38,860 nucleotides of DNA from a virus (lineage: Duplodnaviria; Heunggongvirae; Uroviricota; Caudoviricetes): the IMG/VR virus record IMGVR_UViG_2713896899_000004. One strand, written 5' to 3'. The position numbers were made by a program, and so were the translations under genes. The notes beneath the pieces are model-generated. The model had not been told where the DNA came from, made no database searches, and worked only from the letters and a program-made list of their open reading frames with translations. Shown here piece after piece: positions 1 to 38,860 of this stretch (positions within the stretch are counted from its first letter, which is position 1; each line of letters begins with the position of its first letter).

Positions 1-3
1 TAG

Positions 4-76
4 TCTAAAAACTAGTATTAAGACTATCACTTATTTAAGTGATATTGGTTGTCTGGAGATTCAGGGGGCCAGTCTA
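4..76. repeat. Left terminal inverted repeat (73 bp), perfect reverse complement of 38788-38860; contains internal 20-bp palindrome tatcacttatttaagtgata (25-44)
   Basis: Manual reverse-complement of the last 73 nt matches positions 4-76 base for base; match breaks at position 77 / 38787. Confidence 0.9.
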
Positions 77-8670: not shown

Positions 8671-8751
8671 AAAATAAGCGTGGAGAACACCTCCACGCTT
8701 GATTCATTGGTGAAACAACTTTTCTTTTGCCAAACCACAAAAGAAAAACAC

Positions 8752-9933
8752 ATGAGCCTTTATGTTATATCAACATTTAGGTTGGTCACAATATTGCCTG
8801 TTAAAAGTGGAATTATCGTGAGCGAGCTGAAAGAGCTAATTGCCGAATTAGATTTTGAACAATGGTTGGATACTGAAGGTATCGTTTATCGACGTGGAGG
8901 TGTGAGTGCTCGCGGTCGTGAAGTGAATATCAAGGAGTGTCCGGTATGCGGCAGCTCCAACTGGAAGGTATATTTCAATCTGACCAGTGGTGTCGGCAAA
9001 TGCTTTGCTGGTGATCATCCCGAAGAGATTCAGTTCAATAAGCTGGTCTTCCTCAAGCACTACAGCGGCAAATCACGACGACAGTTCGAGGAATATGTGC
9101 AGAACGCCCTTCTTTCCCAGGGGTGGGCACCAAAGAAAGAAGAGATAGTGCTTGCAAGCACAGTCGAGTTAGAGGGACCACTTGCACTCCCTCGTCATTA
9201 CGAACTTCCTATAGATGGCCGTCTTCCAGACTATCTGGTTGAACGAAACATATCGCCTGAAATGGCAAAGTATTTTGACCTACGATACTGCGTCGAAGGT
9301 AAGCACGCATATGTAGATCCGTATACAGATCAGGTTAAAGGACAGATATTCGATATGCGAATACTGATACCGGTTTACGATCTGGATGGGGTAATGAAGA
9401 CATTTCAGGGACGAGACATTACCGGTACAGCAGAACGCCGCTACCTCTTTCCTATGCAGCTTCCAGCTTCAGGTAAGTTTCTCTACAACGGCCATAATGC
9501 GGTCGGCAAACAGACTGTAGTTGTCTGTGAGGGGGCGTTCGATGTTATGGGGGTTAAACGAGCTATTTTTGATGAAGAAACATTACGTGATTACGTGGAA
9601 CCAATAGGAACGTTCGGGATGCATCTATCTGGCAACACCACTCAGGATGCAGAAGATCAGTTGGGCGCGTTCCTGACGCTCAAGGCGCGTGGATTACGTA
9701 ATGTGATCATGATGTGGGATAGTGAAAAGCAAGCTATACGAAACACTATGGCCGCAGCCAGGCGACTGACCAGTATCGGTCTTAATGTCAAAGTTGCGTG
9801 TTTGGGTGAGGAAGGACTCGACCCAGGCGGTGCAACGCCAGAACAAATTATCAAAGCCTATTATCGGGCAAAACCGTATACCAAACAGTTGGAGTTGCAA
9901 AGCAAGGTTTTGGGCATTAAGGCTCTATCGTAA
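8752..9933 (+). CDS. DNA primase (zinc-ribbon plus TOPRIM)
   Basis: CPVCGSSNWKV...C..GDH zinc-ribbon; TOPRIM-like VVVCEGAFD and MMWDSEK. Start uncertain (8680 in track, 8752 after aaaacacATG, or GTG 8818). Confidence 0.55.
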   Translation: MSLYVISTFRLVTILPVKSGIIVSELKELIAELDFEQWLDTEGIVYRRGGVSARGREVNIKECPVCGSSNWKVYFNLTSGVGKCFAGDHPEEIQFNKLVFLKHYSGKSRRQFEEYVQNALLSQGWAPKKEEIVLASTVELEGPLALPRHYELPIDGRLPDYLVERNISPEMAKYFDLRYCVEGKHAYVDPYTDQVKGQIFDMRILIPVYDLDGVMKTFQGRDITGTAERRYLFPMQLPASGKFLYNGHNAVGKQTVVVCEGAFDVMGVKRAIFDEETLRDYVEPIGTFGMHLSGNTTQDAEDQLGAFLTLKARGLRNVIMMWDSEKQAIRNTMAAARRLTSIGLNVKVACLGEEGLDPGGATPEQIIKAYYRAKPYTKQLELQSKVLGIKALS

Positions 9934-13486: not shown

Positions 13487-14246
13487 TTACGTATAAGATG
13501 ACTTTGTTTTCGTTGAGACGCGACTGTTTGAACTTAAATACAAGTGCAAACGAAGAAGTCTATCTGGCAGTAGCCTAATAAGCCAAACACCAGCGAGGTC
13601 AGTTTCCAGCCTCGTTACCGAAATGGGACACACTGAGCGAGTGTGATTGCAGAACGCAGGATAGGGCATAGACAGCCAAACCACTATGCCCTATTCGATG
13701 AAGTAACAGAATGGGCGGTTGGTATATTTTCAACTCCATATGACTCCCGGATTCTTAGCCACTGACCGCCCATCCTGTTACGTCATTTTGTTCAATTATG
13801 TCGTTTATACTGGGTTAAAAAGCGGCGACGTAGCCCGGCTGGTATGGTTAGCCAGCACACAACGTTGAGGCCATTACATTTTTATCAATTCTAAGGTTCT
13901 ATTCACAGAGATACCGGCGAGCGTTGATATGTAACATGTTGGGCAAACATTCAATCGGAGTAGTGGCCTCAACGTTGTGAAGACAGGATAGTTGTTGTAG
14001 GTTTAACCACTGTTGCCATTGGTGCCTGTTTTCACAACAAATGATTCCATACATCACATTGTATAAATTACAAAGTAGGTGCTGTCCTCAGAAACATCAT
14101 CTACTTAAAGAATTTGCCTTCTACTATTGAGCGAAGTCGAAAGCGTCTGGCACTAACGAAAAGTGCAAGTAGCGGTGCGTTTCCTGGCAGAAACTAAACC
14201 GTCGCGATTGGCACTGTTGAGTAATAAATACTGGCAGTGCCGAATT

Positions 14247-14712: not shown

Positions 14713-14790
14713 CACAGCGTTGAGCGGTTTGGCCTTTTAATCACCCAGATTAAGACTCCGCTAACATAAACCAGACCGCTCAACGCTGTG
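14713..14790. repeat. Long hairpin (about 20-bp stem, 38-nt loop) immediately 3' of tRNA-Ser
   Basis: cacagcgttgagcggt (14713-14728) is the exact reverse complement of 14775-14790. Confidence 0.6.
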
Positions 14791-14902: not shown

Positions 14903-16165
14903 TTACTTTACATAGTCGCCCAGTTTTAATATTTCGCGCTTATATTCTTTAACCATGTCACAGGATTCAATGTAAATTCGATGTAAAAGACTGCCGTTAT
15001 CTTTATTTTCATTTATCTTAATTAGTGCTAATTTATATTCATAGTCATCAAATGCCACAATTAAATGGTGGCCTGGGATTATATCTTCGTCACTCTTAAA
15101 GTATATATCTTCAAGTATGTAATCTAGTTGATTAGATTTTCTTTTCTCGATGTAATCTTCAGCCATAGCTATTACATCATTCCTGTCATTTAACCTGTTT
15201 TTTTCGGAAGGCACATCTTCGTAATGTTGCACGATTGAACAACCAATAAGGCGTGGGATGTAAACGTCAAAATGAGTAACTCTATCATTCGCGGTTTTAA
15301 GTAGTTCCTCAAAGTAGTTTCTTACATGTAAAGGCAACTTCTCAAAGTAATCATTAATTATAGGAGAACAAGGAGTTTTATAATTCATAAGAACCGACGG
15401 TACGAGCTTTGGGTGTCGAAACATCCAGTCCCTTTTAACGTCCGATGGAACATAATAACTTTTAATGATATTATCAAAATAATTTATCATTCGAGATTTG
15501 AATATTTTGTTGAATCTAAGGTTTATGAATGTATCCAGATAAGGCATATTTGAATAAGCATCATCAAAAAATATTTCATCATTGAAAAAATCATATTTAT
15601 TCAATAAACAACACAGTTTTTCCGAATTAATATGTTCACAATAATCGATTTTTAATCCAAAGATAGCAATGATCAACTTCATCTGAGGTGGGATTTTAAA
15701 AATTAATTGTGACACATACGCTCTTTTTTCCTTGAGACATTCCCCATCAATATAAAATGAACCATCCACATACTCAAATATATTAATAATATGCTTCACA
15801 TACTGTATTACCTCATGCTGTCTTACCAATGGGTAATATAGTCTATGTAACTCATCGCTGTTTAAATTAATTTTGTGTTTATCGATAATTTGTTTTGCAA
15901 GAAGACATAACTCATCATGTTGATTTAATAAGGAATCAAACCATTGTTTAAATGCACTCTTTCGCATTTCGAACAATGATTCAGTTGTTAATTGAAGGGC
16001 TGAAAAAGCTGCTTTTGCACTTTTTCTCGCTTCGTAGGCATTCCATGCTGTTGCTATAAAAGCAAATGCTGTAGCCAATGTTCCAACAGTTTGACCATTT
16101 AAAACAACCCAATCCCAAAAAATGACGGTGAGCAGTAGTATAATAATGAAAATTAAAAAAGGCAT
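14903..16165 (-). CDS. AT-rich membrane-anchored protein of unknown function (candidate defence / abortive-infection cargo)
   Basis: 420-aa ORF on the opposite strand from almost all other genes; N-terminal hydrophobic helices then a large Asn/Lys/Tyr/Phe/Ile-rich soluble domain; strongly AT-rich; own terminator. Confidence 0.55.
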   Translation of the reverse strand: MPFLIFIIILLLTVIFWDWVVLNGQTVGTLATAFAFIATAWNAYEARKSAKAAFSALQLTTESLFEMRKSAFKQWFDSLLNQHDELCLLAKQIIDKHKINLNSDELHRLYYPLVRQHEVIQYVKHIINIFEYVDGSFYIDGECLKEKRAYVSQLIFKIPPQMKLIIAIFGLKIDYCEHINSEKLCCLLNKYDFFNDEIFFDDAYSNMPYLDTFINLRFNKIFKSRMINYFDNIIKSYYVPSDVKRDWMFRHPKLVPSVLMNYKTPCSPIINDYFEKLPLHVRNYFEELLKTANDRVTHFDVYIPRLIGCSIVQHYEDVPSEKNRLNDRNDVIAMAEDYIEKRKSNQLDYILEDIYFKSDEDIIPGHHLIVAFDDYEYKLALIKINENKDNGSLLHRIYIESCDMVKEYKREILKLGDYVK

Positions 16166-20986: not shown

Positions 20987-21047
20987 ATGGTTAATGATAT
21001 ATTTATATAAGAAGTTGAACGCTCATTAGAGAACAAAGGAAAAACGC

Positions 21048-22283
21048 ATGACTACTACTGCACTGCAAAATGAAAAAAATCCTTCTGATTACCTTGTTTG
21101 CAAGTGGTGCGGAAAATCATTTCACTATTTTAAGTCCCATGTAGCCTATGGTAATTGCGAGGGCATTCCTGAGTCGGTAAAAGATGCCGATCCTGACACC
21201 GTACTGAAAATGTACACAACGCAGTTTCCAGATGAACCAACGCTATCGAAAAAGGCACTTGATGCAATTCAAGCTAAACGTGCCGAGCAAAAAAGCGAAA
21301 TGGCCAAATCTTCTGGTGTGACCAGTAGCCCAGGCTACATAGGCACAGTTGAGTACAAGACAGATCTGGTCGCAGCTCACGAACTGCTAGACGTAACGGT
21401 GGAAGAACTCGGAACAAAACGTGGGACGCCGCTCATGGTTAGCGTCAACGTCAATACGCCGTTTCCAGAGTTCGTTCCTGAAGTGAAGAAGGGCTACGTA
21501 TATGGCGACTTCGAACTGATCAAAGACATTTTCATGATGCTTGAACTTGGCATACCAGGCTATTTGTGGGGACATGCAGGAACAGGCAAATCGTCATTGC
21601 CTACACAGCTATGTGCTTTGCTCAATCGTCCGTTGATCCGTGCCCAACATACAGCATCAATGGAAGAAGCTCATGTTACGGGTCAAATTCTGGCGCGTGA
21701 TGGCTCTACGTATTTCGAGCCAGGCTTGCTTGCGCTCGCAATGAAGCATGGCTGGGTTTACCTCGCGGATGAATACGACTTTGCGTTTCCACAAATTCTT
21801 GGCGTGTATCAGCCAGTGCTGGAAGGTGAAGCGTTGGTCATCAAAGAGGCGACACCAGAATGGCGTCGCATTACTCCGCATAAACGGTTTGCTTTTATTG
21901 GCACTGGCAACACGAACGGATCTGGTGATGAAACCGGCTTGTACCAGGGTACAAACATCCAGAACGCCGCGAACTTTTCGCGTTTTGGCATCGTTTCGAA
22001 TGTGAAATACATGAGCAAAGAGGCAGAGATCAACATGTTGATAAATGCCGGCATTGTGGATGAGTACGCTGAAAAGATGGTTAAGTTTGCCGGTATCGTT
22101 CGCGATGGTTACGAAGAACACAATATCAGCCAACCGATTGGGCCTCGTGAGCTTTTGTTGTCGGCCAAGATTGGAATGATGCGAGGCGACTTTGTGACAG
22201 GTATTGAGCGTTCTTTCATTAACAAACTCCCTTCAGCTTCTGCGCAAGCGGCACGTGAAGTTGTTCAAAAAATATTTGGTTAA
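21048..22283 (+). CDS. AAA+ ATPase (MoxR/CobS-like) with N-terminal Cys/His zinc-finger-like motif
   Basis: Walker A GHAGTGKSS, Walker B VYLADEYDFA; N-terminal CKWCGKSFHYFKSH...C; paired with the upstream vWA protein. Confidence 0.6.
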   Translation: MTTTALQNEKNPSDYLVCKWCGKSFHYFKSHVAYGNCEGIPESVKDADPDTVLKMYTTQFPDEPTLSKKALDAIQAKRAEQKSEMAKSSGVTSSPGYIGTVEYKTDLVAAHELLDVTVEELGTKRGTPLMVSVNVNTPFPEFVPEVKKGYVYGDFELIKDIFMMLELGIPGYLWGHAGTGKSSLPTQLCALLNRPLIRAQHTASMEEAHVTGQILARDGSTYFEPGLLALAMKHGWVYLADEYDFAFPQILGVYQPVLEGEALVIKEATPEWRRITPHKRFAFIGTGNTNGSGDETGLYQGTNIQNAANFSRFGIVSNVKYMSKEAEINMLINAGIVDEYAEKMVKFAGIVRDGYEEHNISQPIGPRELLLSAKIGMMRGDFVTGIERSFINKLPSASAQAAREVVQKIFG

Positions 22284-33758: not shown

Positions 33759-33813
33759 TCGCCTATTCATAACTAACAAAATAAGTAAACACTAACCACA
33801 AAAGGAAAAACAC

Positions 33814-34089
33814 ATGAGAGTTTTAGTTCGAATCGTTACCAGCACTGTCTATGACGTGTTTCCGCTTTTTATGGTCAAAGCCGATGGTCTTAACGACGAA
33901 GAAACTGACGCACTGATCCAGCGTATTCTCGTTGAATATACAGGTCATGACGCTGATTCAGTGATGGTTGATGATGATGGTGTTTGTTGGCATAACGGCA
34001 ACTGTTGGTACGTAGAAGAGACTCAACAAATCAGTGATGAAGATGCCGCACATCTTGAGCGTATTTTAAGCATCAGCACTTTTGAGTGA
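33814..34089 (+). CDS. Hypothetical acidic protein
   Basis: Conserved aaaggaaaaacacATG start context; 91 aa. Confidence 0.5.
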   Translation: MRVLVRIVTSTVYDVFPLFMVKADGLNDEETDALIQRILVEYTGHDADSVMVDDDGVCWHNGNCWYVEETQQISDEDAAHLERILSISTFE

Positions 34090-34852: not shown

Positions 34853-34898
34853 ATGCAAACTGACTGCGGCTCGTTCCGCAGTCATATTTCATAGTCGT

Positions 34899-35432
34899 CA
34901 CCGCTGACAGCATACACAATCAACTGCCGCTGATAGCATATCGAGAGTCTATCTCACCGCTCACAGCATACTTTACTCGATTTTTTACCGCTGACAGCAT
35001 ACTTAAGACATTGCATGAATAATGTGTACCGGTATGGGTATAACCAGAACAAAATTACCGCTGGCAGCATACGAAGGTCTGACATATGCCATTAATTACC
35101 GCTGATAGCATATCCAAACAAAAATTCCTCAATAAAACACCGCAGACAGCATACGTTCTATCAGGGAGCAGCAGGCAATAAATGCCTTTCACTACAAGCA
35201 ATCAGCGCAATAGCAATAGAATGTTAGTGAGCGCAAACCTATATGGAATGCACTCTTCGAGGTTAGTAACCACTGGGGAGGTATGACAGAGCATTGAGTG
35301 GTGATAGATGATTTACCGCTCACAGCATACGTTCATCTCACTAGACCGCTGGTAGCATATCTTTAACCGTTCACAGCATACTTTTCAGAAAAATAGCCGC
35401 TGATAGCATACATTTCACCGCTGACAGCATAT
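34899..35432. repeat. Iteron array, about 12 copies of a 17-bp repeat (consensus yACCGCTGACAGCATAC), downstream of rep (copy-control, incA-like)
   Basis: Copies read at 34899, 34924, 34955, 34986, 35056, 35097, 35138, 35314, 35344, 35365, 35395 and 35416, in both orientations with irregular spacing. Confidence 0.8.
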
Positions 35433-36526
35433 CAAAGCAGTTTGAGACTATTGGAAAGGATCTCAATCATCTTGATATTTTCAGGCGTCAAATTCTGCGA
35501 AAGTTCAGTTATCTTGTTGATAATGTTCTGTTTAGCATCAATTTCCCCGGCTTTCTCATCTGGTTTTTTGGGTTCGATGTCTTCAGGTTTTGGCGGTGCG
35601 ACTTTAAGTTTTGGATTGCGGCTATGAATCTGGATATAGATCGACCGCCCTCGCTTAATCTCGCTGTATTCGAGATAGCCCAAATCTTGGAGAGCTTTTA
35701 AGCCGTTACGTATAGTCTGATTCTGCGAGCTTACATTCCTGCTACTCAAATTGAGTCGCGCACGCAATCGAGCAAGCGATACCGGCGCAGGCTTGGTTGG
35801 AAGACTTTCGATGAAGGTGTACAGAGCCTGTGCTGTTTCTTTGCGTGGTAGCTTATTGATAACCTTTAACTGCAAAAGAACCTTATGGTCAAAGCGATAT
35901 AGTTCGGCCAGCTTCGGTTCTGCATAGAACACCACCGTATCTTTCTGCTCGTTGTAGTCCACGCTATTGATGAGGTGCACCATCAGAAGCGAGATCTTGT
36001 TAGAGCCGTCGACGTTCTTTTCTTCATACGTTCTCTGGAAAGACAGAGTTGTACGCATGATCTTCAAAAGACTGTTTGTAAGCCGGTCGCGGAGTGTTTT
36101 GCGGATCTGTGACGATGGATAGCCACAAAACTTCGCAAATTTCGTGATGCTTAACTCGACACGACCGTTAGGTTCGCCGTATTCTGCCAGCGAACGCACA
36201 ACGCCCACCCACGTTTTGAAATCATGATCCATGTCGAGACGAGGACCGGTTATCTTGATATCGGAATAGCCTTCAGAACGGGCTACTTCGAGCTGAACAA
36301 GCTCCTTTGAAGCATCGATCTCATTTGGCTTGTTACGCTTGCTGTATTTTGTCCCCTTGAGCGTGGGCACGAACAACCCCAGCCGCATCAACGCAATTGG
36401 TTGGACTGTATTGTTGCTATTAGGGACAAGTTCCCCTGTGTACAATTCAAGGGAACCTTCTTCAAAGTTGTCGAGATTATCTTCTACTTCTTTGTTATTT
36501 TTACCTTTTTTATTTTTTGTGGACAT
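35432..36526 (-). CDS. Iteron-binding replication initiator (Rep, plasmid RepA-like)
   Basis: Gene sits between two iteron arrays. Start set at internal ATG (36526) with RBS aaagg, because the track's 40-aa N-terminal extension reads through iterons. Basic protein, Arg/Leu-rich C-terminus. Confidence 0.6.
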   Translation of the reverse strand: MSTKNKKGKNNKEVEDNLDNFEEGSLELYTGELVPNSNNTVQPIALMRLGLFVPTLKGTKYSKRNKPNEIDASKELVQLEVARSEGYSDIKITGPRLDMDHDFKTWVGVVRSLAEYGEPNGRVELSITKFAKFCGYPSSQIRKTLRDRLTNSLLKIMRTTLSFQRTYEEKNVDGSNKISLLMVHLINSVDYNEQKDTVVFYAEPKLAELYRFDHKVLLQLKVINKLPRKETAQALYTFIESLPTKPAPVSLARLRARLNLSSRNVSSQNQTIRNGLKALQDLGYLEYSEIKRGRSIYIQIHSRNPKLKVAPPKPEDIEPKKPDEKAGEIDAKQNIINKITELSQNLTPENIKMIEILSNSLKLL

Positions 36527-36545
36527 GTGGACACCTTTGTCATTC

Positions 36546-36648
36546 AACCGCTGACAGCATACTTGATTTGCCGCTGGCAGCATACCAAAAACAGTTGGCA
36601 GCATACGGCGAACCGTTGACAGACTATCAATTACCGCTGGCAGCATAC
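36546..36648. repeat. Iteron array, 4-5 copies of the same 17-bp repeat, upstream of rep (origin iterons)
   Basis: Copies at 36546, 36569, 36592 (degenerate), 36611 (degenerate) and 36632. Confidence 0.75.
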
Positions 36649-37492: not shown

Positions 37493-37746
37493 CCCTCCAG
37501 ATCGCATATTGGCGTAGATAAAATCTACGCCTCCTCAAAATAGCTCTCATAGCGTTCTACAGTGATCCTGTCTTATTTTTAGTCATACAGACAAGCAAAA
37601 TTGCGCCACAATATATAGGTATATACTTACTTATAAATTTTGTATATTAAGACGCTCGTTTCATTTCTAACATACCGTTATGCATAGTTGTTTACCTTCT
37701 CATTGCTCTTAAAATTTGTATCAAAATAACCACAAAGGAAAAACAC

Positions 37747-38790
37747 ATGACTTTGCCATACGGCGTCATTTCTGACTGCCACTACCACAAATGGGATGCG
37801 TTCTCCACGACGAACGCTGAGGGGCTTAACTCCAGACTTGAAATACAGTTGGAAGCAACGAAAGAAGCAGCCATCGCCATGAAGAAGGCCGGTTGTAAGT
37901 ACATGTTGGTTGCCGGTGATACATTTCACGTCCGAGGAACTGTGTCCCCTTCTGTTTTGCATTACGTAACTGAAACGTACAAGTGGATTATCAACGAGCT
38001 TGATCTGACAGTAGTAATGCTGGCCGGTAATCACGATCTTGAAACCAACGATTCAGTATATAGCGCCAACGCAGCAGCATCGCTGAGTTCTATCGGCGTG
38101 GTAATCGTATGTGGCAAGCGCCCACACTCAATAAAAATTGGTGATGTGACTGTCCACCTGATTAGCTGGCGTAACAATCATGCGGAGCTTATCAGCGATC
38201 TGAAAGCATTACGTAAGAGCGTAGAAGGTGATAATCATGACGTTGTTATCCATACATCCATTAACAAAGCCATTCCAACAATGCCTGACGTCGGTATCGA
38301 TGCGCAGGAGTTAAAGGATATCGGCTTTCGTCTCGTGCTTAGTGGGCATTACCACAACCACAAAGAGGTCATTCCTGGAGTTATCAGTGTCGGTGCGCTG
38401 ACCCATCAAAATTGGGGAGATGTTGGATCTCTGGCTGGTTACATGATCGTAAACCCGGACGGCAGTTTCAGTCACTACGAAACCAGTGCGCCTAAATTCA
38501 TTAACCTGGAAGATTATGTTGCCGATGACCAAATTCGCGGCAACTACGTGCGTTTCCGCGCCGTAATTGAGAACGATGAAGAAGGCATTAAGTACCAGAA
38601 TATCCTCAAAACAATGGGCGCAAAAGGTGTCGTGTGCAACTTCATCCGTAAGTCATCAATGATGGAAGGGACAGCAAGCACAACGGAAACCAGCAAAATC
38701 GATAGCTTGGGAGAGTCGGTATCTGCTTATTGCAAGATTGTCCACGATACTGACGGCGGATTTGATCTGAGCAAGTTGGATATTTTGTAG
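37747..38790 (+). CDS. Calcineurin-like metallophosphoesterase (SbcD/Mre11-like nuclease family)
   Basis: Phosphoesterase motifs in order: DCHYH, AGDTFH, AGNHD, SGHYHNH; conserved aaaggaaaaacacATG start; stop codon lies inside the right TIR. Confidence 0.6.
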   Translation: MTLPYGVISDCHYHKWDAFSTTNAEGLNSRLEIQLEATKEAAIAMKKAGCKYMLVAGDTFHVRGTVSPSVLHYVTETYKWIINELDLTVVMLAGNHDLETNDSVYSANAAASLSSIGVVIVCGKRPHSIKIGDVTVHLISWRNNHAELISDLKALRKSVEGDNHDVVIHTSINKAIPTMPDVGIDAQELKDIGFRLVLSGHYHNHKEVIPGVISVGALTHQNWGDVGSLAGYMIVNPDGSFSHYETSAPKFINLEDYVADDQIRGNYVRFRAVIENDEEGIKYQNILKTMGAKGVVCNFIRKSSMMEGTASTTETSKIDSLGESVSAYCKIVHDTDGGFDLSKLDIL

Positions 38791-38860
38791 ACTGGCCCCC
38801 TGAATCTCCAGACAACCAATATCACTTAAATAAGTGATAGTCTTAATACTAGTTTTTAGA
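38788..38860. repeat. Right terminal inverted repeat (73 bp), partner of 4-76
   Basis: Same comparison; the stop codon of the last CDS (38788-38790) lies inside the repeat. Confidence 0.9.

Follow-up and report, generated by a model that had tools for sequence, protein, structure and literature searches.

An Mre11/SbcD-family nuclease gene of an SSU5-like phage-plasmid, interrupted by IS2 at the edge of a draft contig

An exact-sequence match identified the stretch of DNA analyzed here (the window, 38,860 bp) as the complete draft contig BBVJ01000037.1 from assembly GCA_001514665.1. Its last gene, here called sbcD, was found in an ORF search of the window at 37747-38790 on the plus strand; it starts with ATG and encodes 347 aa. 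The gene is preceded by a palindromic operator-like motif and a leader, and both ends of the window consist of IS2 sequence. The features referred to below are the following:

1..76, minus strand: left end (nt 1-76) of a second, inverted IS2 copy, 76/76 identical to IS2A nt 1-76
37615..37634, plus strand: palindromic operator/promoter-like motif, ATAGGTA-N6-TACTTAT (also written ATAAGTA-N6-TACTTAT), from aligned copies
37728..37750, plus strand: conserved leader with ribosome-binding region, AACCACAAAGGAAAAACACATGA, which runs into the sbcD start codon, from direct-repeat family D4
37747..38787, plus strand: sbcD codons 1-347 of 361, from the ORF search, Pfam, PHROG, the homologue alignment, and AlphaFold2 with Foldseek
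37774-37782, plus strand: motif I of the Mre11-form phosphoesterase in the window sbcD, DCH
37915-37929, plus strand: motif II of the same set, GDTFH
38026-38037, plus strand: motif III of the same set, GNHD
38251-38253, plus strand: motif IV of the same set, H169
38344-38355, plus strand: motif V of the same set, GHYH
38788..38860, plus strand: left end (nt 1-73) of IS2, 73/73 identical to IS2A of E. coli MG1655
38820..38839, no strand assigned: internal palindrome TATCACTTA-AA-TAAGTGATA, from a palindrome scan, equal to IS2 nt 33-52

The first-pass annotation had credited the gene product with the full set of calcineurin-type motifs. All five were found with the Mre11/SbcD pattern (I, DxH; II, GDxxH/D; III, GNHD/E; IV, H; V, GHxH), and an alignment of 64 homologues, with identities down to 34%, shows no variation in their residues. 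The invariant residues are D10, H12, G57, D58, F60, H61, G94, N95, H96, D97, H169, G200, H201, Y202, and H203, every one of which is present in the window copy. Pfam Metallophos (PF00149) matches residues 4-204 of the 347-aa product (E 7.5e-10), and PHROG 100, defined as "SbcD-like subunit of palindrome specific endonuclease," matches residues 1-345 (E 1.1e-86). The AlphaFold2 model of full-length SbcD (pLDDT 90.3, pTM 0.81) is predicted to have the Mre11 fold, with a phosphodiesterase domain followed by a capping domain. When this model was compared to the PDB by Foldseek, the best 50 matches were all Mre11/SbcD chains, with alignments of 295-496 columns. The top match was 3tho_B, from the T. 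maritima Mre11:Rad50 complex (E 6.8e-16), and the best 50 also included P. furiosus and M. jannaschii Mre11, S. aureus SbcD (7dog), and E. coli SbcCD (7yzo, 6s85). In phage genomes, tblastn with SbcD matched, at 21-27% identity, T4-like genes recorded as a "recombination endonuclease subunit" and genes of staphylococcal phages that carry the name rncA or "recombination nuclease A."

In Pfam and NCBIfam, generic Metallophos was the only profile to match SbcD at cut-off, and no family-specific one did. NCBIfam returned a sub-threshold match to PdeM only (23 bits vs. a cut-off of 150), and a sequence search of the PDB returned only a marginal match to "Nuclease MPE" (E 0.028). Since generic libraries do not decide the subfamily, the specific call was made from PHROGs, synteny, and the structure model. 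By these, the product of 37747-38790 belongs to the Mre11/SbcD nuclease family, and it is termed a nuclease by that assignment. The SbcD/Mre11-like identification made earlier from sequence was thus borne out by PHROG 100, by Foldseek of the predicted structure, and by the gene neighborhood, and no profile assigned the protein to a non-nuclease phosphatase subfamily, the outcome that the first-pass annotation had named as evidence against itself. The RefSeq name of the protein is "metallophosphoesterase family protein."

The reading frame in the window is incomplete. Its product is identical at 347 of 347 positions to the start of a 361-aa protein encoded by p009_B, and at 346 of 347 positions to the retained part of Cyrano CYRAN_65. 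DNA homology to intact phage-plasmids ends at 38788, running to ...GATATTTTGT / ...ATATTTTGT and then giving way to IS2 (TAGACTGG...). IS2 here replaces GTCAGGAAATCC..., which corresponds to the last 43 nt of sbcD in the relatives, where the lost 3′ end reads GTCAGGAAATCCTCACCGAAGCGGAGAGTTCGGAGGCTGTGTGA. The insertion point is codon 348 of 361, the TAG stop codon comes from IS2, and the product lacks its last 14 residues, CQEILTEAESSEAV. It had been claimed that the gene ends inside a right terminal repeat; the stop codon does occupy the first 3 nt of the 73-nt right arm, but the repeat is IS2 and the gene is truncated by it.

The repeat in question is a perfect inverted repeat of 73 nt, with arms at 4-76 and 38788-38860 that are 100% complementary. 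Both window ends correspond to the left end of IS2, an IS3-family element, and are 100% identical to that of IS2A, palindrome included; compared to the IS2 right end, only 22-23 positions are identical (22/73 for 38788-38860). The 9+2+9 palindrome within the repeat accordingly belongs to IS2 rather than to the phage-plasmid. Phage SfX carries an annotated IS2 in which the window-end sequence sits just upstream of IS2 ORF1; the transposase genes beside sbcD would read in the direction of sbcD, beyond the window. The window shows 73-76 nt of IS2 at each end, and neither transposase genes nor right ends nor 5-bp target duplications lie within it. On the left, comparison with p009_B shows that a small ORF, encoded downstream of the tail-fibre genes, is interrupted after codon 3 (ATGAGCTAT|GGTGCAC). 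With IS2 left ends on both sides of a draft contig, the window ends are assembly breaks in a repeated insertion sequence and not ends of a genetic element, and the placement of the gene at an element terminus falls with them. A single IS2 copy circularizing the segment into a 40-kb replicon was considered and rejected, since both ends are left ends and one copy cannot supply two of them. The simplest layout would be a larger circle in which two segments, A and B, are separated by IS2 on one side and by inverted IS2 on the other (A - IS2 - B - inverted IS2), with the contig as segment A.

The replicon from which the contig derives has the features of an SSU5-like phage-plasmid, namely collinear homology, which takes in the genes for phage lysis and DNA metabolism, and a Rep3-type repA with iterons. 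Window positions 1170-38788 are collinear with 26656-64372 of Escherichia phage Cyrano at 95-99% identity, and the window is likewise collinear with PhiR41_1 and CMS-2020a at 95-99% identity; identity to Salmonella phage SSU5 is about 78-82%. Pfam identified a Rep3_N domain in the window, and iterons flank repA. Phage-plasmids of the SSU5 group occur commonly in E. coli and related Enterobacteriaceae. The p009_B and PhiR41_1 sequences were deposited as circular records of ~108-110 kb (110,182 bp for p009_B). In p009_B, the two IS2 junction points lie 39.3 kb apart across the record origin, compared to 38.7 kb in the window, and this matching spacing, together with the collinearity, is as expected had IS2 simply inserted twice in an SSU5-like phage-plasmid of ordinary make-up, about 108-110 kb in size. 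In the circular relatives sbcD is internal, located in a replication/recombination module next to repA, and the intact gene order is repA, an ASCH-like gene, sbcD (361 aa), a spacer, sbcC (638 aa), a 247-aa ORF, a 189-aa ORF, and nrdAB. A RecA-like gene lies further upstream of the sbcD module in intact copies. The 189-aa ORF is a RuvC resolvase according to the Cyrano record, and it has no Pfam match.

The absence of an SbcC-like or SMC-like partner, also reported earlier, holds for the window itself, where tblastn detected no SbcC-like gene in the 38,860 nt (best E 1.1). However, the partner gene lies directly downstream in intact relatives. Cyrano carries a gene for a 638-aa "SbcC-like endonuclease subunit" 229 nt downstream of sbcD, and an "AAA family ATPase" is annotated at the equivalent position in p009_B. 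The 638-aa protein matches PHROG 77, "SbcC-like subunit" (E 3.7e-164). Pfam AAA_23 and SMC_N exceed their cut-offs, SbcC_Walker_B is a weak match below its cut-off, and the NCBIfam Rad50/SbcC models give partial matches that are all far under the curated cut-offs. The protein has an NGSGKST P-loop, a single CPTC at 329 of 638, and an SGG signature at 549. The CPTC is central in the protein, as is the CxxC of the Rad50 zinc hook.

Similar pairs were seen at more distant loci. Three of three distant SbcD homologue loci, from Burkholderia gladioli, Photobacterium ganghwense, and a metagenome (L012, L013, and L015; nuclease identity 37-52%), have an adjacent AAA_23/SMC_N gene encoding 639-648 aa, with which the nuclease gene abuts or overlaps (spacings of +13, -4, and -14 nt). 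Genes for a gp32-like SSB, a 5′-3′ exonuclease, and RecA lie upstream in two of the three (Burkholderia and the metagenome), and ribonucleotide reductase lies downstream in all three. An SbcC/Rad50-like gene therefore stands immediately downstream of sbcD in every intact relative checked (Cyrano, p009_B, and the three distant loci). In the window, the sequence stops 70 nt past the truncated sbcD, and sbcC is absent because the window ends before its place in intact relatives; the "orphan" state of SbcD is a contig-edge effect. An inversion that moved the partner elsewhere into the window was excluded, as neither the relatives' SbcC nor its neighbors, the 247-aa ORF and the RuvC-like protein, had a tblastn match there. 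By extension from the relatives, sbcC would be present on another contig of GCA_001514665.1.

Taken together, it is very likely that the locus holds a genuine Mre11/SbcD nuclease-subunit gene of an SSU5-like phage-plasmid that has been cut by IS2 at the edge of a draft contig, with its sbcC partner normally just beyond. The sbcD product would be the nuclease subunit of a phage-type Mre11-Rad50 two-subunit complex resembling SbcCD and T4 gp47/gp46. By analogy with T4 gp46/47 and cellular SbcCD, a dimeric nuclease may be clamped onto DNA ends by the ATPase, such that the ends are resected or opened. Opened ends could then feed the RecA-like recombinase, and possibly the 189-aa RuvC-like product, in recombination-dependent replication or repair during lytic growth. 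In T4, gp46/47-type end resection serves recombination-dependent replication, and the role in the SSU5 group is inferred from it. In this isolate, IS2 at codon 348 introduces the TAG stop and removes 14 residues, and it would leave sbcD at least 1.3 kb from sbcC. The short-read draft assembly breaks inside IS2, with the inverted second copy ending the contig on the other side, and from these two breaks arise both the apparent "terminal inverted repeat" and the apparent "orphan" status of the nuclease, neither of which is real.

Among known systems, the closest counterparts are Cyrano CYRAN_65/66, the PhiR41_1 "exonuclease," and p009_B WP_000174804 with WP_137647971, which share the same neighbors (repA and the ASCH-like gene) and the same upstream region. 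In these SSU5-group relatives sbcD is intact and sbcC is adjacent, whereas in the window sbcD is cut at codon 348 and the contig carries no sbcC. T4 gp47/gp46 and staphylococcal rncA resemble the pair in having a nuclease of ~340-360 aa followed by a short Rad50-like ATPase of ~560-650 aa, and in the setting of a two-gene module among RecA/UvsX-like, SSB, and nuclease genes. However, identity to these T4 and staphylococcal phage homologues is only 21-27%, and the replicon here is a temperate phage-plasmid rather than a virulent phage. E. coli SbcCD and the archaeal and bacterial Mre11-Rad50 proteins (6s85, 7yzo, 3tho, 3av0, 1ii7, 7dog) share the predicted fold (E 1e-11 to 7e-16, probability 1.00), the same five motifs, and the predicted C-terminal helix-loop-helix, at 12-20% identity. 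The SbcC-like partner, at 638 aa, is much shorter than E. coli SbcC, which has 1048 aa, and has a shorter coiled coil.

Other explanations for the locus were weighed. The one from which the analysis started holds that the DNA is a linear element bounded by terminal inverted repeats and that a stand-alone SbcD, encoded at its physical end, acts on the hairpins or ends to which the repeat and its palindrome give rise. The perfect 73-nt inverted repeat at both ends with its 9+2+9 palindrome, the lack of an SbcC-like gene in the window, and the general knowledge that SbcCD enzymes cut hairpins all speak for it. However, repeat and palindrome are accounted for by IS2 nt 1-76 at the ends of a draft contig, the p009_B and PhiR41_1 records are circular with sbcD internal, sbcD is truncated by the repeat rather than naturally ending in it, and the partner lies directly downstream in every intact relative checked. 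The probability left to a linear element is close to negligible, and the end-processing role proposed from the proximity of terminus and palindrome loses its basis, the palindrome being IS2 nt 33-52 and the gene internal in circular records. It is also very improbable that the product is a non-nuclease calcineurin-type phosphatase or phosphodiesterase, e.g., a protein phosphatase or cyclic-nucleotide phosphodiesterase, that shares only the metal-binding motifs. Such an enzyme would be consistent with the generic Metallophos match in Pfam and NCBIfam and with the RefSeq name, but PHROG 100 covers nearly the whole product, the best 50 PDB matches of the model are all Mre11/SbcD, and synteny with an SMC/Rad50-like ATPase gene holds across 37-99% identity. 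The forms of motif II (GDxFH) and motif III (GNHD), which are those of Mre11/SbcD, count against a phosphatase as well.

A further alternative accepts the nuclease but supposes that sbcC has truly been lost, through an IS2-mediated deletion or rearrangement that left a defective phage-plasmid remnant with an orphan, truncated SbcD. Two inverted IS2 copies do flank the segment, insertion sequences are generally known to cause adjacent deletions and inversions, and no complete genome with the junction shows the far side of IS2. On the other hand, the 38.7-kb segment is collinear with the relatives and its length fits the distance between insertion points in p009_B, the layout with two left ends is compatible with the larger circle described above, in which B would measure ~70 kb, and nothing seen points to a deletion. 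We therefore consider the loss of sbcC unlikely.

Under the favored explanation, in which an ordinary sbcD was interrupted by IS2, the truncation itself may have consequences for the protein. The full-length model predicts a C-terminal helix-loop-helix with helices at 321-336 and 341-360, and the truncation takes 13 of the 20 residues of the last one. Among 63 homologues, the lost tail is conserved at C348 (40/63), I351 (40/63), L352 (56/63), and A355 (36/63). Structures of Mre11-Rad50 complexes show the base of the Rad50 coiled coil held by the helix-loop-helix at the Mre11 C terminus. Because the lost helix would belong to this Rad50-gripping element of Mre11 proteins, the truncated allele is likely impaired in binding its SbcC partner, as judged from the model and by analogy. 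In addition, any gene that follows sbcD is moved at least 1.3 kb away by IS2. The C-terminal domain of T4 Mre11 reportedly both binds Rad50 and autoinhibits the nuclease. The biochemical role of SbcD is putative, as is a loss of SbcC binding or a polar effect in the IS2 allele. A more far-reaching proposal, which we regard as unlikely, is that the insertion created a natural separation-of-function allele, in which the catalytic and capping core is kept, the helix that tethers SbcC is mostly lost, and the gene is transcriptionally uncoupled from sbcC. If this were true, plasmid maintenance would proceed either with no functional Mre11-Rad50 complex or in the presence of a free nuclease that has escaped regulation.

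An exact look-up of the 347-aa product found the sbcD::IS2 junction in one other assembly only, DRR017204, which may come from the same strain as the BBVJ01 source. Two further public contigs encoding the same 347-aa product were set aside, as they end by chance near codon 347 and have no IS2 sequence. Junction queries containing IS2 (301 and 300 nt) matched 4,766 and 4,746 of 5,426 complete E. coli genomes, and neither the sbcD::IS2 junction nor the left-end junction was present in any PLSDB plasmid or complete E. coli genome searched. The SbcD-like subunit is already annotated in public phage records and has a defined PHROG, and the SbcD-SbcC pair, a conserved part of the recombination/replication module of the SSU5 group, is annotated as such there; only the strain-specific IS2 insertion departs from this. 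The disrupted allele is a minor strain-level variant, at most a natural knock-down for questions of plasmid maintenance or lytic growth. The case also carries two cautions for similar material: insertion sequences are the first thing to compare when a short-read contig has a palindromic "TIR" at both ends, and a subunit that looks orphaned at a contig edge calls for a comparison with intact relatives.

Upstream of sbcD, the region that is shared with the relatives contains candidate control elements. The operator-like motif at 37615..37634 lies about 115 nt upstream of the start of the gene and is followed by an extended -10-like sequence, TGTATATT. The motif has 11 matches in the window (10 distinct sites) vs. 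1.68 expected, a count reached in 0 of 100 shuffles, and its sites are mostly upstream of plus-strand genes. The copy at 37615..37634 is likely the control region of the sbcD operon, and the distribution of the motif suggests that this operon belongs to a repressor- or promoter-controlled regulon common to other early genes. The leader that ends in the sbcD start codon also recurs, with D4 copies at 8733, 21029, 33795, and 37728, and is common to sbcD and three other genes of the window.

Several short motifs recur in the window, and one of them is a palindrome with an appearance of shared transcriptional control. ATAAGTA-N6-TACTTAT has 11 matches at 10 sites, compared with 1.68 by chance, and this count was reached in none of 100 shuffles (0/100). 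Comparison with the ORF list placed the majority of the sites in intergenic positions 5′ of plus-strand genes, often with a -10-like GTATAA/TATATT sequence on their 3′ side. The motif looks like a common operator/promoter for early or DNA-metabolism genes of the phage-plasmid. A second repeated element consists of four near-identical copies of a translation-initiation region, each closing with the start codon of a different gene, including the Mre11/SbcD-type nuclease gene sbcD; the degree of conservation of these copies is unusual.

6387, 6514, 9948, 10824, 13464, 16277, 26553, 30067, 34108 and 37615: 20-nt palindromic sites
8733-8755, 21029-21051, 33795-33817 and 37728-37750: 23-nt leader/ribosome-binding region AACCACAAAGGAAAAACACATGA (direct-repeat family D4)
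34894-35431 and 36541-36648: iteron-like repeats of 20-21 nt, core ACCGCTGACAGCATA, at least 12 copies
35432-36646, minus strand: repA, Rep3-type
13858-13979 and 14713-14790: pair of inverted repeats, each able to fold into a hairpin, arms of 20 nt, common core CACARCGTTGAG
14903-16165, minus strand: ORF of 420 aa

The iteron-like repeats flank repA on either side, some of them lying inside the gene, and together with it they constitute the plasmid origin region, only ~1.1 kb from sbcD. The hairpin-forming repeats adjoin the 420-aa ORF, just upstream, and may be recombinase or partition sites. This ORF overlaps the GC minimum of the window (15001-16000, GC 0.31); relatives carry an integrase annotation somewhere within the matching stretch, which may or may not correspond to this ORF.

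The insertion of IS2 into sbcD falls at the same point as the annotated start of a small ORF that E. coli SSU5-like elements carry in the spacer before sbcC, the SbcC/Rad50-like ATPase gene.

L003:2261-2539 (p009_B) and the gap L001:8029-8257 (Cyrano): sbcD-sbcC spacer with the small ORF, PHROG 37951

The two genes are 229 nt apart in E. coli SSU5-like elements, where the small ORF matches its PHROG at E 7e-38; in distant homologues, sbcD/sbcC-type genes adjoin or overlap (+13, -4, and -14 nt). Two Logan contigs from unrelated read sets, SRR21910248_22697 (L008) and SRR11179849_2757 (L009), end 1-3 nt from the insertion point, and IS2 sequence is absent from both. These contigs were found by exact-length look-up, and their ends near this point are probably a matter of chance selected by that look-up, and less probably mark a local assembly break point.

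At the opposite end of the window, IS2 lies after codon 3 of another ORF, itself downstream of tail-fibre genes.

1-320: left IS2 copy and interrupted 84-aa ORF (WP_048959172 in p009_B)

Positions 77-1170 had no match in the phage collection, but the first part, ~77-300, matches p009_B-type plasmids; this is thus a variable region adjoining the tail-fibre genes.
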